From IMG/VR virus record IMGVR_UViG_3300042991_000632, positions 27,036-91,035 of that record: DNA of 64,000 nucleotides; one strand, given 5' to 3'. The translations under genes were made by a program, and so were the position numbers. The stretch's first letter is position 1; each line of letters starts with the position of its first letter. This DNA comes from a virus. Lineage: Duplodnaviria > Heunggongvirae > Uroviricota > Caudoviricetes. Shown piece after piece: positions 39,365 through 43,238 of this stretch. The notes below the pieces were generated by a model. It was given only the letters and a program-made list of their open reading frames with translations. It ran no database searches and had not been told where the DNA came from.

Positions 39365-39949
39365 TCATGCTAATCTTTTATCTCTTATAAGTTCACGAAG
39401 AAATACATTTTTCTTACCACCAAGAAATTCAACCCATTCTGCATGATATTCTGGAAATAGTTTTTCTTGTAATTCAGGATAAAGTCTGAGTTTAACCCAC
39501 AGTTCAGGATTATTTTTGTTTGCTTCATCTTTTGCTTCTTTATACATTTTAATATCAAGAAGCCAGTTTACAAAGTCAGGATAATCATCATAATTAAATA
39601 CTCTTTCATCAACAATAAAGCAAAGTGCGGTTAATGCATCATTCAGATCAGGTTCTGTGAAATATGTGAATGGAACTTTATTATCATTTAATGCATCAGC
39701 AATTTGATTTAAACTGCCTAACGCAACACCATCCAAATCTCTTCCCTTATTGGTTGTGCCACCATTAAGTATTATCCAAGTTTTCCAATTGCTTGCAAAA
39801 TCTTTGAATAATTTGGTTTTGCCAAGTTGATATGCATATTCAACGGCAGCATGCCCCGCCTGAATCGCTTGCTGGATTGGACTTATATTATAAGGTACAA
39901 AGAAATACATTCTGAGTTCCAATTGTTTCGTACTACCCGTAGTTGCCAT
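39365..39949 (-). CDS. possible peptidyl-tRNA hydrolase (PTH2-like) protein
   Basis: beta-strand followed by AIQAGHAAV resembles PTH2 AAQCxHAAL active-site region; weak, start moved to MATTGS. Confidence 0.35.
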   Translation of the reverse strand: MATTGSTKQLELRMYFFVPYNISPIQQAIQAGHAAVEYAYQLGKTKLFKDFASNWKTWIILNGGTTNKGRDLDGVALGSLNQIADALNDNKVPFTYFTEPDLNDALTALCFIVDERVFNYDDYPDFVNWLLDIKMYKEAKDEANKNNPELWVKLRLYPELQEKLFPEYHAEWVEFLGGKKNVFLRELIRDKRLA

Positions 39950-39950
39950 G

Positions 39951-40187
39951 TTATAAATTATTATATGTAAAATCAATACAACCATCTTTATCGTGAACAA
40001 TTATCATCACGTCACGATTTTTAGCATAGCGAACCGCATATAAAAATGCAAGTTCCCTATGCTTAAAATTTCGCAGTGACCTCTTACCATATCTTTTATG
40101 CACACCCCAACGACTACGACTTGAAATCACGTGTAGTTGTTCCTGTAATGGTTCAGGGTGTAGCATTTCGGATAGATAGTGTCCCAT
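39951..40187 (-). CDS. hypothetical protein (78 aa)
   Basis: co-oriented ORF. Confidence 0.4.
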   Translation of the reverse strand: MGHYLSEMLHPEPLQEQLHVISSRSRWGVHKRYGKRSLRNFKHRELAFLYAVRYAKNRDVMIIVHDKDGCIDFTYNNL

Positions 40188-40189
40188 AA

Positions 40190-40453
40190 TTATTCTTCTC
40201 TAAAAAATTTTGGCAACTGATTTTGACTCATTTTAATTAATTCATCACTGAGTTTTTCATTTGATTTTAACAGTTCTTCAATAATTTCTTGCAACGATAC
40301 ATTACCTTGTTGTAATATATAATAAACAGTATTATACATTGGAACTGTTCTCACCTTTTTTGAGAATTCAAAAGAAAATTGCGATAATATTGGGTCGTTT
40401 TTCCAATAGAATTTATCACGATCAATAGCACTATTTTCGTTATTCTCAGCCAT
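40190..40453 (-). CDS. hypothetical protein (87 aa)
   Basis: co-oriented ORF. Confidence 0.4.
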   Translation of the reverse strand: MAENNENSAIDRDKFYWKNDPILSQFSFEFSKKVRTVPMYNTVYYILQQGNVSLQEIIEELLKSNEKLSDELIKMSQNQLPKFFREE

Positions 40454-40456
40454 AGT

Positions 40457-41359
40457 TTAGTGTGCCTTTCTTATTTCAATCAGTCTTTTATCACCAGTTA
40501 ACCATTCACGAATTTCTTCAACTGTATACCAACCATAATTAGTATCACTATCACTGTAATTAATCCAGTAAAGAATATCATACTTGGTATTATGTTTCTT
40601 TTTCTGTTCTTCCAAAACACCTTCTTCATTATTATAGTCAATCCACTTGGGAGAACAAGCCATAAAATAATGAAGTTTACTATAACCGTTTTTATTACCG
40701 TATTGTTTGATGATTTTTGTCATGCCGATTTGTTCTTCATAATCTTCACGGTCAAAATAACTCATGTCGCCAACAAACATAGCCTGTGATGTTTCCTGCG
40801 GAACACGGTCAGTTATCATAAGACATAATGATGAACCAGCAAATGGATTCTTTGCCCTAAGATTGGCAACGGCAATGGTGAGTCTTTTTTCTTCAATTGC
40901 AGTTTTGAGTTCTTTGAGATATTCAACTTCCTGTTCGCCCATAACGGCAACACCGAAACTTCCACCATCCCATGCAGTGATTATATTATCTTTATCGCCT
41001 CTGGTGTCTGGATGTTCTTTATTCCACTTTTCATTCCACGTCAGGTCTTCAATCCAGTTTTTAAAAGCATGAGGAAAATATTTTTCCATGCTTTCAGCAT
41101 CATCCCATGCTCTTCCAGTATAAAGAATTGCAAACTTCCGTTTCTTATGTGTTTCTTCTTTGAAGACAAGTGGTGGAACTTTTGTTATGGTACGATTTTT
41201 TATACCAGCATTTTGTTTGGTGGCTTCGGGCATTCCACATAAACGTTTAAGGTCACTAATACCCCACTCGTGTTCTGCACAATAGTCATAACCAAGTGCT
41301 ACTCCGATGAATTTGCCGTCATCTACGATAAGTCCGTTGTCTTGTGATGCTTTTCTCAT
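40457..41359 (-). CDS. hypothetical protein (300 aa)
   Basis: immediately downstream of Thg1-like gene; no P-loop or HAD motif seen. Confidence 0.55.
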   Translation of the reverse strand: MRKASQDNGLIVDDGKFIGVALGYDYCAEHEWGISDLKRLCGMPEATKQNAGIKNRTITKVPPLVFKEETHKKRKFAILYTGRAWDDAESMEKYFPHAFKNWIEDLTWNEKWNKEHPDTRGDKDNIITAWDGGSFGVAVMGEQEVEYLKELKTAIEEKRLTIAVANLRAKNPFAGSSLCLMITDRVPQETSQAMFVGDMSYFDREDYEEQIGMTKIIKQYGNKNGYSKLHYFMACSPKWIDYNNEEGVLEEQKKKHNTKYDILYWINYSDSDTNYGWYTVEEIREWLTGDKRLIEIRKAH

Positions 41360-41360
41360 T

Positions 41361-42176
41361 TTATTTATTTTTAGGAATGAAATTCAATAAAAATTCTCTA
41401 TTCTGTGTGAATGTCGGGCATTCATCTGAAACCCAACGTGTACGAATCGCTGATGCACTATTAAGTTTATCAATATCTGGCTTAATTTCAAATTGCTGTT
41501 TAAAGATAAACCTACCTCTTTTGTACTTAGGTGCATAGTCGTTCCAGTTGATACCTTTCTGGAATATCATTTCCTGTTGTTCACTTACGTTCTTACCTGC
41601 AAGTTCTTTGTGACTGTAAAGACTCTGAGCAACACTTGAAATGCTATTTCTCACAGTATCCTGCTGTCGCCAAATGAAATAGTTTTCTACTTCATAATCA
41701 CTTGGAATTGTGAAAACTCTGGCATCAAATTCAGCAAGTTTAAGGTTTCCTGCTTGCATAAACCAACTCCATTCAACCTTATCGGTACTATTATTATATT
41801 TTTCAGTAACAAATCTTATCCACCTAAGTTGATTGAATTTAGCAGCAGCCATACTTGCAGCAATACTTGCCATTTTCTGGATATTGCCATCAAACCAAGC
41901 ATCCGTACCAATCTTATCAAAATCGGTAAGAAGAATGCTGATTTCATCACTTTGAACAAAGCCAAACTTAGCACCCTGCATATTCTTACAAAGGTAGCAA
42001 GCAGTTTCATCCATATCATTGATAAGACCAACATCAAATGGACTGTTCAAACCCTTCGTATAAGTATGAAACGCCTTACCATCAATACGGATTATTGTAT
42101 ATGTTCTACGGGGAAGAGTAATACGAGTTCTGTCCTCATAATACTTTTTCATCCTGTCACCAAGTTCGTCTCTCAT
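41361..42176 (-). CDS. Thg1-like protein (tRNA-His guanylyltransferase family 3'-5' nucleotidyltransferase)
   Basis: TIIRIDGKAFHTYTKGL...FDVGLINDMDETA...KFGFVQSDEISILL...AAKFNQ parallels Thg1 VVRIDGRGFHKFSK...YGQSDEYSFV...FASxY motifs. Confidence 0.65.
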   Translation of the reverse strand: MRDELGDRMKKYYEDRTRITLPRRTYTIIRIDGKAFHTYTKGLNSPFDVGLINDMDETACYLCKNMQGAKFGFVQSDEISILLTDFDKIGTDAWFDGNIQKMASIAASMAAAKFNQLRWIRFVTEKYNNSTDKVEWSWFMQAGNLKLAEFDARVFTIPSDYEVENYFIWRQQDTVRNSISSVAQSLYSHKELAGKNVSEQQEMIFQKGINWNDYAPKYKRGRFIFKQQFEIKPDIDKLNSASAIRTRWVSDECPTFTQNREFLLNFIPKNK

Positions 42177-42379
42177 TTTGTTTTATTTTTAATTTTACAT
42201 GGACACCAATCAGGTATTGCTACCTTATCCCAAGTATCAACACATCCCGAAATTGTGCGTTTCGCTTTACCGCAAATCCATTTGAATAACATATCAAAAC
42301 TATCTCCAGTATATACCCTTTCACTCTCAAAGTGCGGACACTGATTACAATCCTTTACATCAATTTGAATTTTCGCCAT
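42173..42379 (-). CDS. small zinc-ribbon protein (68 aa)
   Basis: CNQCPHF...CPCK; overlaps both neighbours (coupled). Confidence 0.45.
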   Translation of the reverse strand: MAKIQIDVKDCNQCPHFESERVYTGDSFDMLFKWICGKAKRTISGCVDTWDKVAIPDWCPCKIKNKTK

Positions 42380-43238
42380 TCAATTTATTATTAAGTTTTT
42401 GTTTGAAAAGTTGTACCGCTTTCTGACCAATGGCTTTGTTTACTTCTTTACTTTCAACAATCTCGCCCTTACCTTCCCTGTAAACATCTTCAACCATTGC
42501 TTTAATAACATCACCCATTGATTCCATGCTCACACCTGCAGGAAATTTCTGCAACACGTGTTCAAGCCTGAGATTAGTAACCCATTCTTCTGCAATTTCT
42601 TTTGCATCACTAAGAACCTTGAGTTGTTCTTTACTGACTTCACGTTTAGTTTTGGTTTCCATTTGTTCGTCTGGCTTATATTTGCAGATGACTCTTTCAC
42701 CGTTATTCAAACGCATTTCAACAAGCGGTCTGCAAACAATGCCCTCACATTTATGTTCGTATCCCATACCGTTACGAACTGCTTGCATTGAATACATATC
42801 CCTAAGTGCTGTTAGATTTTCCAGTGTAACTTCTATTTTATTGTAATGCACAAATTCAATATTGAATTTTTCGCAAACATCTTCTGCGTTTGGTACATTA
42901 AGCCAAACATCACCAACGAATACATCAAAGCCAATGAATTTCAATTCCTTACCATAAGTATGTGACATACCCTGTTGCTTTCCACCGTATGCTTCGCCAT
43001 AGATTATAATGTCAACATCCGGGAATATTTCTTCAAATTTGGCTTTAAGAAATGCTTGGTCAAATAATGCAAGAAATTTCTCATGACTCTCGCCACCTGC
43101 GAAGAAATGAATTTGTTTGTTTTGGAATCTCCAGCCGATGTGACTGCTCGTGCCATGAATTTTTTCCATAGCATAGCACTCCTTAAATAAAAGGATTTCT
43201 TGACTTTTGTAAAGGTTGTCTATATGTAAGTAACCCAT
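42360..43238 (-). CDS. RNA ligase (Rnl2 / RNA-editing-ligase-like nucleotidyltransferase)
   Basis: motif I EKIHGTS (lysine nucleotidyltransferase KxDG-type, as T4 Rnl2 EKIHGTN), FVGD, IIYGEAYGGKQQG, EGIVCRP, CKYK motifs in Rnl2-like order. Confidence 0.7.
   Translation of the reverse strand: MGYLHIDNLYKSQEILLFKECYAMEKIHGTSSHIGWRFQNKQIHFFAGGESHEKFLALFDQAFLKAKFEEIFPDVDIIIYGEAYGGKQQGMSHTYGKELKFIGFDVFVGDVWLNVPNAEDVCEKFNIEFVHYNKIEVTLENLTALRDMYSMQAVRNGMGYEHKCEGIVCRPLVEMRLNNGERVICKYKPDEQMETKTKREVSKEQLKVLSDAKEIAEEWVTNLRLEHVLQKFPAGVSMESMGDVIKAMVEDVYREGKGEIVESKEVNKAIGQKAVQLFKQKLNNKLNGENSN

Follow-up and report, generated by a model that had tools for sequence, protein, structure and literature searches.

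Gene neighborhoods that combine a Thg1-family enzyme with an RNA ligase were described previously. In 2010, Anantharaman, Iyer, and Aravind proposed a tRNA-repair role for neighborhoods of Thg1, RNA ligase, PNK, and Macro genes (PMC2904730, in its parts on Thg1). In 2021, Iyer et al. assigned to the RNA-repair genes of jumbo phages Rnl1/Rnl2, a HAD-SAK phosphatase, PTH2, a CCA-adding enzyme, and, sporadically, Thg1, and the HAD-SAK family was found to accompany RNA ligases in these phages (PMC7824862, in its parts on RNA repair). The Thg1-like protein (TLP) of B. thuringiensis (BtTLP) is a tRNA 5'-end repair enzyme (PMC3701042). A phage RNA-repair gene set of the kind examined here was, therefore, predicted before, and the idea is not new, even though the first-pass annotation of this DNA did not regard the pairing of an RNA ligase with a Thg1-like polymerase as an established module.

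Retron Eco2 (TOPRIM domain), PARIS, and OLD are defenses that nick the acceptor or anticodon stems of tRNAs. Metal-dependent TOPRIM tRNases are expected to leave 3'-OH and 5'-phosphate ends. The present study concerns a cassette within a window of 64,000 nucleotides, the whole stretch of DNA that was analyzed, which probably belongs to a jumbo phage.

Results

An ORF check of positions 39365-43238 revealed seven minus-strand ORFs. Five of them (42360-43238, 42173-42379, 41361-42176, 40457-41359, and 39365-40000) were the genes counted by the first-pass annotation, while 40190-40453 and 39951-40187 were additional. The reported junctions were also recovered: the genes overlap by 20 nt at 42379/42360 and by 4 nt at 42176/42173, and a single nucleotide separates them at 41361/41359. 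However, the coupling deduced from these junctions was not upheld. The 109 consecutive minus-strand gene pairs of the whole window had a median gap of 5 nt (50% at 5 nt or less and 28% overlapping); tight junctions are the norm and, thus, provide no evidence of coupling in this cassette.

The first gene (42360-43238, minus strand) encodes a predicted ATP-dependent RNA ligase of 292 aa. It matched Pfam RNA_ligase (PF09414, E=1.1e-14) and the PHROG family phrog_548 'RNA ligase' (2e-28), and its family profile matched T4 Rnl2 (2hvq, E=1.9e-22) over residues 3-323 of 335, with the C-terminal domain included. The Rnl2-type assignment made earlier was, therefore, borne out. The match to TIGR02307 Rnl2 (E=3.6e-11) fell far short of equivalog level, at 43 bits (cutoff 197). 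With the single sequence as the query, T4 Rnl2 was matched at E=0.098 only, and the family profile reached E=0.026 against TbREL1 (1xdn). The ligase lysine K26 was present and invariant, as were H28, G29, E82, F104, E165, G166, K186, K188, R224, and D251. Judging from its sequence, the protein is an Rnl2-family ligase with all of the covalent nucleotidyltransferase motifs (I, III, IIIa, IV, and V) and an Rnl2-type C-terminal domain. Its two-domain architecture is common to T4 Rnl2 (gp24.1) and the kinetoplastid RNA-editing ligases. However, it is very divergent and shorter than T4 Rnl2 (334 aa), and its motif I reads EKIHGTS instead of EKIHGTN. To our knowledge, no biological role has yet been settled for T4 Rnl2.

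The third gene (41361-42176, minus strand) encodes a 271-aa protein, predicted to be a templated 3'-5' RNA polymerase. Its earlier placement in the Thg1/TLP family was confirmed by matches to Pfam Thg1 (PF04446, E=1.1e-26; 93.8 bits, cutoff 29.2), phrog_4717 'tRNA-His guanylyltransferase' (1.8e-83), and, as the best PDB match, BtTLP (4kgk, E=4e-60, approximately 50% identity). The three catalytic carboxylates (D32/D77/E78) were all conserved, and R30, S76, K101, and R153 were present. E14, R30, D32, S76, D77, and E78, which correspond to E12, R28, D30, S74, D75, and E76 of BtTLP, were invariant in all 70 of the 70 aligned phage TLPs, and counterparts of BtTLP K95 and R131 were kept. These residues identify the predicted polymerase as a bacterial-type TLP with a full two-metal active site. 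The ligase and Thg1 motif matches noticed at first are, at the sequence level, far beyond chance. In place of the eukaryote-type HINNLYN stretch, the phage TLP has the TLP-type VRNSISS. It differs from BtTLP by a 27-residue insertion (approximately residues 119-145) and by a serine (S45) at the position of the ATP-positioning K43. The K43A substitution in BtTLP decreased adenylylation by approximately 10-fold and did not affect GTP activation (PMC3701042); by analogy, this serine suggests that the phage TLP may prefer GTP or already activated ends.

Between these two genes, 42173-42379 (minus strand) encodes a small Cys-rich protein of 68 aa, which is probably Zn-binding (conserved C11, C14, C36, C59, and C61). 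It matched phrog_29585 (unknown function, 2.8e-14) and had no match in the Pfam search. This protein was found only in the window and four related loci, always between the ligase and TLP. Downstream of the TLP, p300 (40457-41359, minus strand, 300 aa; family motif D-x3-A-E-H-E-W-G) had no recognizable fold. Its family is large and most homologues lack a nearby TLP; therefore, p300 is not simply the TLP accessory factor that had been suggested. The 87-aa ORF (40190-40453, minus strand) gave chance-level matches only in Pfam and PHROG searches and was absent near TLPs in related loci. The 78-aa ORF (39951-40187, minus strand) is weakly DUF2188-like (PF09954, E=4.6e-4, under the cutoff; phrog_3220, 1.9e-5) and was present in only one of the related loci.

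The last gene, p194, had been assigned a TTG start at 40000. Its homologues start where the ATG at 39949 lies, and this codon is, therefore, most likely the start (39365-39949, minus strand, 194 aa). The proposal of a PTH2-like hydrolase stood as regards the fold, with a PTH2-like domain at approximately residues 10-118 followed by a C-terminal helical domain; however, a PTH2 match was not obtained at the sequence level. p194 is likely to be a tRNA-unloading enzyme.

A plus-strand gene at 50474-50965, 7 kb from the cassette, encodes a 163-aa, stand-alone phosphatase of the HAD 'Swiss Army Knife' RNA-repair family (PF18143 HAD_SAK_2, E=1.9e-23; 83.8 bits, cutoff 27.5), which is a candidate 3'-phosphate end-healing enzyme. 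No polynucleotide kinase was found in the 64 kb, in which the P-loop proteins were one helicase and one ABC-type ATPase only. Therefore, classical heal-and-seal repair of breaks with 2',3'-cyclic-phosphate and 5'-OH ends is incomplete here.

Discussion

We propose that the cassette belongs to a gene island with which a large phage repairs the ends of RNAs, most likely tRNAs, and consider this proposal slightly likelier to be right than wrong. Host or competitor nucleases may damage tRNAs during infection. The Rnl2-type ligase would directly seal 3'-OH/5'-phosphate nicks in double-stranded parts of tRNAs (e.g., the acceptor or anticodon stems), and the TLP would refill tRNAs missing 5' nucleotides of the acceptor stem by activating the 5'-phosphate and then polymerizing 3'-5' with the 3' strand as a template. 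The PTH2-like p194 may strip the aminoacyl or peptidyl group, such that damaged or stalled tRNAs are recycled. p300, perhaps an end-processing enzyme, and the Cys-rich protein may be further partners. An older island would have had the order tRNA-like gene(s), ligase, p300, and p194, with the TLP as an optional extra. We infer that the cassette may have a counter-defense role; its tie to an acceptor-stem nuclease defense is pure conjecture.

End repair is supported by the enzyme identities and catalytic residues, the PTH2-like fold, and HAD_SAK_2 in the same window; by the ligase-TLP pairing in relatives, the three ligase types in one slot, and p300 and p194 beside distant TLPs; and by RNA-repair genes near other TLPs, the published predictions, 5'-end repair by BtTLP, and the tRNA-nicking defenses. 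It is weakened by weak pairing outside the clade, TLP-less relatives, and synteny by descent, as well as by the lack of a polynucleotide kinase in the window and of a sequence-level PTH2 match, the change of K43 to Ser, and the occurrence of p300 mostly without a TLP.

The pairing recurred in related phages: of the 20 non-redundant loci with a TLP identity of 62% or higher, 13 had a ligase upstream of the TLP and on its strand. However, below 62% identity, adjacency was found in 3 of 30 loci versus 2 of 55 control loci. The pairing is mainly the property of one clade. The whole region is, moreover, syntenic in relatives of 200-350 kb, from DNA ligase, RNA ligase, (TLP), and p300 on to a PIF1 helicase, and proximity may, therefore, reflect descent rather than function. 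The genes may be neighbors by descent only and act independently, with the ligase performing a separate job, p300 and p194 being unrelated early genes, and the TLP acting alone in 5'-end quality control or the restoration of G-1 of tRNA-His on host or phage tRNAs. The relative L064, in which the ligase, p300, and p194 were kept and the TLP was missing, is consistent with this, as are the genome-wide tight packing and the tRNA-His genes near the TLP in two loci. Among deposited phages, the nearest homologue of the ligase had no TLP within 8 kb. Furthermore, 163 deposited phages carry a TLP, and most of the neighborhoods sampled lacked an annotated RNA ligase alongside.

Nevertheless, we regard independent action as rather unlikely. 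Three non-orthologous ligase types occupied the slot beside the TLP, namely, that of the window (approximately 286 aa), that of L013 (approximately 335 aa), and an OB-fold type (PF21189+PF09414). Homing endonucleases and an intein were inserted at this slot, and the linkage with the TLP was unbroken. p300 and p194 rejoin the TLP in another order in a distant lineage, where p300-p194-TLP form a contiguous trio (L143), and p300 adjoins the TLP in three further loci. RNA-repair functions also recur beside the TLPs of unrelated phages, the neighbors of which included COG0617 (CCA-adding/poly(A) polymerase family), a LigT-type '2'-5' RNA ligase', and a phosphoesterase; other phage TLPs were near tRNA genes or Pnkp-type domains. 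In the 64-kb window, neither a tRNA-His gene nor any canonical tRNA was found.

A tRNA-like gene of approximately 160 nt (45406-45566, minus strand) has a 7-bp acceptor stem (GATTGGG/CCCAATC), a canonical T-arm, and approximately 90 nt beyond these, and is followed by a terminator-like hairpin (45268-45294). At least 13 related loci carry homologous elements of 98-184 nt upstream of the ligase slot, with any ligase type, and the TLP-less L064 has them as well. Compensatory changes were observed in the acceptor and T stems of these elements, in a pairing count biased by the choice of 5' strands through a complementarity search. Seven long elements from five related loci passed the Rfam tRNA gathering score; their insertions, of 30-64 nt, were in either the anticodon arm or the variable region. 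The island may then mature the phage's own aberrant tRNA-like RNAs, not host tRNAs: insertions of 30-75 nt would be cut out and the halves rejoined by the ligase, with the TLP and p300 rebuilding or trimming the 5' end. The inserts are shorter than self-splicing group I introns are expected to be. If true, this would amount to a phage case of protein-catalyzed tRNA splicing or 5' editing. However, we consider it improbable. The insertion position was inconsistent between elements, and we identified no splicing endonuclease. The window copy is separated from the ligase by 2.1 kb of other genes, scored 18.5 bits under the Rfam tRNA model (gathering score 29), and had a fold no stabler than that of shuffled sequence (z=-1.6); a relaxed ARAGORN search reported it as a tRNA with a 73-nt insert. 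These elements could instead be tRNAs whose variable arms are very long, decoys, or pseudogenes.

Action on non-tRNA substrates, for example in repairing or remodeling the 5' ends of mRNAs of the phage, rRNA, or small RNAs, or with the TLP as a 5'-adenylylating or capping-like enzyme, is very improbable. In its favor, TLPs act on non-tRNA substrates in vitro and the Thg1 family appears in the non-canonical capping literature (PMC8131947), RNA ligation via a 5'-App intermediate was raised in the 2010 analysis (PMC2904730), and the gene after the TLP in L143 encodes a NUDIX protein, possibly an RNA pyrophosphohydrolase. Against it, the nearest characterized relative, BtTLP, repairs tRNA 5' ends, TLP neighborhoods repeatedly contain tRNA genes and enzymes directed at tRNA, and the K43-to-S change in phage TLPs did not correlate with ligase adjacency.

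The end-repair proposal follows the same logic as the 2010 and 2021 predictions, as given in the parts of these papers cited above, in which a Thg1-family enzyme beside an RNA ligase indicates tRNA repair. In contrast to the 2010 bacterial neighborhoods, the phage window contains neither a polynucleotide kinase nor a Macro domain. The partners also differ from those in the same parts: one is of a 300-aa family that lacks annotation, one is a Cys-rich mini-protein, and one has a divergent PTH2 fold. Long tRNA-like genes, which these parts of PMC2904730 and PMC7824862 do not mention, lie ahead of the ligase slot.

T4 Pnkp/Rnl1, which heals and seals PrrC-cleaved tRNA-Lys, is likewise a means by which a phage counters tRNA damage with a ligase of its own. 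However, T4 uses Rnl1 for this purpose, whereas the present cassette uses Rnl2, a sealer of duplex-RNA nicks. It has no kinase, the HAD-SAK phosphatase being the only candidate end-healing enzyme found, and it includes a 3'-5' polymerase, which T4 lacks. In mitochondrial tRNA 5'-editing (Acanthamoeba and Dictyostelium TLPs), a nuclease first removes 5' nucleotides, and the TLP then restores the 5' strand of the acceptor stem, templated by the 3' strand. We know of no nuclease identified as removing the 5' nucleotides in that system; by analogy, we speculate that p300 may be a 'removal' enzyme. Unlike the phage cassette, mitochondrial 5'-editing operates in a eukaryotic organelle, where it corrects mismatches encoded in the genome without a ligase. 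Beside these known systems, p300 with its unrecognized fold, the HAD-SAK phosphatase 7 kb away, and the long tRNA-like genes by the ligase slot are new leads.

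Gene organization of the cassette

Seven consecutive ORFs are located on the minus strand at 39365-43238. From upstream to downstream, these encode a 292-aa Rnl2-family RNA ligase (42360-43238), a 68-aa Cys-rich protein (42173-42379), a 271-aa Thg1-like protein (TLP, 41361-42176), a 300-aa protein (p300, 40457-41359), two small ORFs (40190-40453 and 39951-40187), and a 194-aa protein (p194, 39365-39949). The junction coordinates in the first-pass annotation were correct; however, the overlap of these genes, which it took as evidence of coupling, was the wrong evidence and was dropped. 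A single long run of tightly packed minus-strand genes extends from ~4.4 to 49.3 kb. Across the window, the median gap between consecutive minus-strand genes is 5 nt and 28% of the 109 pairs overlap, and the cassette junctions therefore carry little weight. Within 36-47 kb, the minus strand has a single site resembling an intrinsic terminator (45268-45294), and the cassette thus lies inside a long polycistronic block. A scan for sigma-70 promoters was uninformative (60 sites vs 54 expected).

The Cys-rich protein has five conserved cysteines and was only found between the ligase and TLP, in four relatives. Directly downstream of p194, a 196-aa protein (38737-39327, minus strand) showed weak matches to MmcB-like/'DNA repair protein' families (phrog_2776, 2e-17; PF06319, E=0.01). 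Its homologues are located downstream of TLP in L013, L015, L018, L020, L021, and L023 (IMG/VR phage loci; tblastn, 45-52% identity).

RNA ligase and Thg1-like protein

The ligase matched Pfam RNA_ligase (PF09414; E=1e-14, 55 bits, cutoff 27) and the PHROG 'RNA ligase' (2e-28), and motifs I (KxHGxx), III, IIIa, IV, and V are all present in the right order. K26/H28/G29, G81-E82, F104, E165-G166, and K186/K188 align with the motifs of T4 Rnl2 and are invariant in three ligase subtypes; K26 of motif I is the catalytic lysine. R224 and D251 in the C-terminal domain are also invariant. A profile of the window ligase and 15 relatives matched T4 Rnl2 (2hvq; E=1.9e-22) over residues 3-323 of 335, and the match therefore includes the Rnl2-specific C-terminal helical domain. 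This profile also touched the trypanosome editing ligase. Against the NCBIfam Rnl2 model TIGR02307, the ligase matched positions 94-305 with 43.2 bits. Because this score is well under the equivalog cutoff of 197, the ligase is best regarded as a divergent member of the superfamily and not as an orthologue of T4 Rnl2. T4 Rnl2, which prefers nicks in duplex RNA, is one of the two characterized proteins closest to those of the cassette.

The other is the TLP of Bacillus thuringiensis (BtTLP, 4kgk), to which the window TLP is ~50% identical (E=4e-60). The TLP scored 93.8 bits against the Thg1 palm domain PF04446 (gathering score 29.2). The Thg1 C-terminal domain PF14413 reached 22.9 bits (cutoff 26.3), and the alignment with BtTLP spans this part of the protein (residues 146-270) at 79 bits. 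The HINNLYN-type motif is the mark of bona fide eukaryote-type Thg1, which adds G-1 opposite A73. The stretch aligned to HINNLYN of Candida Thg1 reads VRNSISS; since the motif is absent, the window protein files with TLPs and not with Thg1 proper. The catalytic residues of BtTLP are D30, D75, E76, R28, S74, and E12 (PMC3701042). Their counterparts, D32, D77, E78, R30, S76, and E14, are invariant across 70/70 aligned phage TLPs, and D32, D77, and E78 are the three Thg1 catalytic carboxylates (D29/D76/E77 in hTHG1). The residues for nucleotidyl transfer and activation comprise R30, S76, and E14 together with K101 ('NIQKMAS') and R153 ('FDAR'), which align with their counterparts in BtTLP as equivalents of K95 and R131.

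The ATP-positioning lysine (BtTLP K43, ScThg1 K44) is replaced by S45. In BtTLP, K43 positions ATP for 5' adenylylation, and K43A lowered adenylylation ~10-fold and left GTP-dependent activation unchanged (PMC3701042). The replacement of this lysine suggests that the window TLP may prefer GTP or pre-activated 5' ends. The missing lysine also prompted the idea that the ligase hands 5'-App-RNA to the TLP. This idea was dropped because most ligase-linked TLPs have K or R here, with no correlation; most phage relatives likewise have K or R, and L014, L018, and L023 have Q. The exact window TLP sequence has no record in public assemblies, and a literature search found no experimentally tested phage TLP.

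p300 and p194

At 50% identity, the p300 family comprises at least 1522 representatives, most of which are stand-alone proteins 250-310 aa long. Pfam, PHROG, and NCBIfam gave no annotation, a PDB search returned no sequence relative, and no fold is recognizable (orphan fold). Its conservation pattern looks like that of an enzyme because E29, H30, G33, G52, W130, and N267 are invariant, and D25, E31, R56, and D198 nearly so. Its members are almost exclusively viral: among 185,579 species genomes, just 17 cellular loci were found, mostly in metagenome-assembled genomes of CPR (Patescibacteria-type) and Woesearchaeota, and none of these loci had TLP, ligase, or p194 nearby.

p194, which had been suspected to be a PTH2-like hydrolase, has the PTH2 fold and belongs to a divergent PTH2-fold family of >2,500 clusters. 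The PF01981 match that this suggestion called for was not obtained (no Pfam match at E ≤0.1), and its family profile found no PDB sequence at E ≤10. In an alignment by eye, Q30 and H33, both invariant, match the PTH2 motif 'AQxxHA', and the upstream Lys position is Gln.

Co-location across phages

We examined 57 IMG/VR loci with TLP relatives at 39-88% identity and 80 loci with p300 relatives, scored by HMMs built for this analysis; distant p300 loci served as controls. A PF09414-type ligase was located upstream of TLP on the same strand in 13/20 non-redundant loci with TLP identity of ≥62%. In contrast, a ligase was found in 3/30 loci below 62% and in 2/55 control loci. Therefore, the pairing of ligase and TLP is mostly a property of one clade, and its enrichment beyond this clade is weak.

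The clade consists of 200-350-kb phages with the kept order DNA ligase, RNA ligase, (TLP), p300, p194, and PIF1 helicase. One member, L064, is without TLP and keeps the remaining genes of the block; TLP is an optional insert. The ligase slot holds one of three types: the window type, a 335-aa type with 23-27% identity to it, and a type in which an OB-fold (PF21189) accompanies the ligase. Homing endonucleases and an intein are inserted at this slot, which has not been dispersed. GIY-YIG and LAGLIDADG homing endonucleases lie between the ligase and TLP in two relatives (L014:5216-5980, L015:5059-5994), a LAGLIDADG gene is immediately upstream of TLP in L027 (5045-5983), and the RNA ligase gene of L020 (3352-5472) has its own LAGLIDADG intein. 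The slot is a hotspot of selfish elements.

In close relatives, two further genes occur between TLP and p300, neither of which is present in the window. One encodes ~455-476 aa (L007:6839-8269, a copy without a Pfam domain), and the other encodes ~640-650 aa (L007:8282-10210, FtsH-like AAA+/Peptidase_M41). Both are also present in L008 and L010-L013, the former alone in L014 and L015, and the latter alone in L018 and L023.

In a distant lineage (p300 identity 23-25%), p300 adjoins TLP in four loci, and in a fifth, L151, the two are 3 kb apart. One of the four, L143 (5956-10884), carries the three genes contiguously in the order p300-p194-TLP. A 396-aa NUDIX protein, a 225-aa ORF without a Pfam match, and a CoaE-like P-loop kinase of 301 aa come next, and this 12.7-kb locus yielded no RNA ligase. 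In 14/50 non-redundant loci with TLP, a p194-like gene lies ≤6 kb from it; these include loci of a divergent TLP subfamily (L060-L062). The cassette genes may simply be neighbors by descent with independent roles, to which we assign a minor share of the probability.

Among cultured phages, TLP occurs in 163 records, usually annotated as 'tRNA-His guanylyltransferase', and the neighborhoods sampled contain mostly hypothetical proteins. A Vibrio phage has a COG0617 (CCA-adding/poly(A) polymerase family) gene in the TLP neighborhood, and a Rhodococcus phage has a LigT-type '2'-5' RNA ligase', a phosphoesterase, and a tRNA. In a Pfam sweep, TLP neighbors included two members of RNA_ligase, two AAA_33 kinases, and one protein with a Pnkp phosphatase domain. 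In phage Eldridge, two ORFs of 290 and 70 aa that precede TLP mimic the ligase and the Cys-rich protein in size only; this likeness was rejected because the 290-aa ORF had no Pfam match and neither ORF was BLAST-similar to window proteins. Elsewhere in the IMG/VR loci, tRNA arrays including tRNA-His (L038:892-2414, L041:64-783) and phage tmRNA genes (L034:3359-3784, L062:10994-11378) are located beside TLP.

Long tRNA-like genes

A long tRNA-like element is encoded at 45406-45566, on the cassette strand within a 350-nt gap (45253-45604), and is followed by the terminator-like hairpin. Its acceptor-type stem (GATTGGG/CCCAATC) pairs perfectly over 7 bp, with the two strands ~150 nt apart, and its T-arm is canonical (GCAGG-TTCGAAT-CCTGC). 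The element scored only 18.5 bits on the Rfam tRNA model, its minimum-free-energy z-score was -1.6, and it was called solely by relaxed ARAGORN, which reported a tRNA carrying an insert of 73 nt. With ARAGORN at standard settings and Rfam at its gathering thresholds, no canonical tRNA or Rfam family was found in the 64 kb. The tRNA family was the sole Rfam match of the element, which hence matched no Y-RNA-type (YrlA) model. A scan of IMG/VR for exact 22-mers returned nothing.

Homologous elements of 98-184 nt with 30-90 extra nt were present in at least 13 related loci (L007:3763-3867, L010:3863-3967, L014:3463-3622, L017:3443-3571, L018:2497-2668, L064:5920-6075, and others). They combine a canonical acceptor stem with a canonical T-arm and are missed by standard ARAGORN. 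They lie 100-2100 nt upstream of the ligase gene, whichever ligase type it encodes, and also in L064, which lacks TLP. Their acceptor and T stems vary between loci by compensatory changes, and all 12 distinct acceptor sequences pair (12/12), the 5' strands having been located by a complementarity search. Independently of this search, seven long elements (98-130 nt; L007, L016, L017, L020, L021) passed the Rfam tRNA gathering score over their full length, each with 30-64 nt inserted in either the anticodon arm or the variable region. No account of such elements emerged from a literature search. Possible identities are tRNAs whose variable arms are very long, insertion tRNAs that require processing, decoys, or cofactors of repair enzymes. 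We regard it as improbable that they are dedicated substrates or cofactors of a phage-owned, protein-based tRNA processing pathway, in which the 30-90-nt insertions would be cut out, the Rnl2-type ligase would rejoin the halves, and the 5' acceptor strand would be trimmed, perhaps by p300, and then rebuilt by TLP; if so, a bacterial virus would perform enzyme-catalyzed tRNA splicing and 5' editing, and its tRNAs would be invisible to host tRNA-targeting nucleases until matured.

A candidate end-healing enzyme and other genes in the window

On the plus strand, 50474-50965 encodes a HAD phosphatase of the 'Swiss Army Knife' RNA-repair family as a stand-alone protein (HAD_SAK_2 PF18143, E=1.9e-23), 7 kb from the ligase and in the opposite-strand block. 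This further candidate for RNA end healing has a predicted phosphatase activity that would correspond to the 3'-phosphatase of heal-and-seal tRNA repair (Pnkp and ligase). The kinase of that system is absent: no polynucleotide 5'-kinase was found in the 64 kb, in which a PIF1-type helicase and an ABC-type ATPase are the sole Walker-A proteins, and no PNK family was among the best 25 of 30 families in a Pfam sweep.

A P-loop protein is located at 17449-18198 and the PIF1 helicase at 36930-38342. The window also encodes defense-like or conflict-type domains (ABC-type ATPase [AAA_15/21/23], GmrSD_N/DUF262, HATPase_c_3, patatin, and Band_7), a denV-like pyrimidine-dimer glycosylase, an R2K ATP-grasp protein, and an SprT-like protease.

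Proposed function and comparison with known systems

Sequence comparisons establish the enzyme families, their intact active sites, and a recurrent but clade-weighted co-location. We somewhat favor the view that the ligase, TLP, PTH2-fold protein, and HAD-SAK phosphatase form an island that keeps tRNAs usable during infection. The cleavage of tRNA is a common anti-phage strategy (PrrC, PARIS, retrons, Cas13, Cas12a3, OLD, and Schlafen), and defenses that target stems include retron Eco2 (acceptor stem) and PARIS (anticodon stem). Metal-dependent TOPRIM tRNases, of which these two defenses are examples, are expected to leave 3'-OH and 5'-phosphate ends in tRNA stems. The Rnl2-type ligase, which requires such ends, would seal nicks of this type left by defense nucleases, and no kinase would be needed because the substrates would already carry 3'-OH and 5'-phosphate. 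Any 3'-phosphates could be removed by the HAD-SAK phosphatase. Where acceptor stems have lost 5' nucleotides, TLP would restore them with the 3' strand as a template, as BtTLP does in vitro (PMC3701042). The role of the PTH2-fold protein would be to deacylate tRNAs that are damaged or stalled, as also proposed for PTH2 of jumbo phages by Iyer et al. 2021 (PMC7824862).

In the literature consulted, the documented phage answers to tRNA cleavage are cleavage-resistant replacement tRNAs and the joining of tRNA fragments. If the cassette works as proposed, the templated 3'-5' refilling of acceptor stems would join this repertoire, and T4-like Rnl2 ligases would gain a natural substrate, namely, nicks by TOPRIM-type nucleases in tRNA stems. 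Three components travel with these enzymes: the p300 family, the divergent PTH2-fold family, and the long tRNA-like RNAs.

The concept of Thg1-ligase repair has precedents. In the passages concerned, Anantharaman, Iyer and Aravind 2010 (PMC2904730) place bacterial Thg1 beside polynucleotide kinase, Macro, and RNA ligase genes and propose tRNA repair, and the jumbo-phage RNA-repair inventory of Iyer et al. 2021 includes Rnl1/Rnl2, HAD-SAK phosphatase, PTH2, a CCA-adding enzyme, and sporadic Thg1. The first-pass annotation was right in its enzyme assignments and overrated the novelty of their pairing; the difference from these precedents lies in the gene composition. In contrast to the bacterial neighborhoods as outlined in 2010, the window is without a kinase, and no Macro domain is among the Pfam matches listed. 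Compared with what these passages of both precedents describe, the partners also differ, comprising the orphan-fold p300 family, a Cys-rich mini-protein, and a divergent PTH2-fold protein, and the clade of the window has an interchangeable ligase slot with long tRNA-like genes ahead of it.
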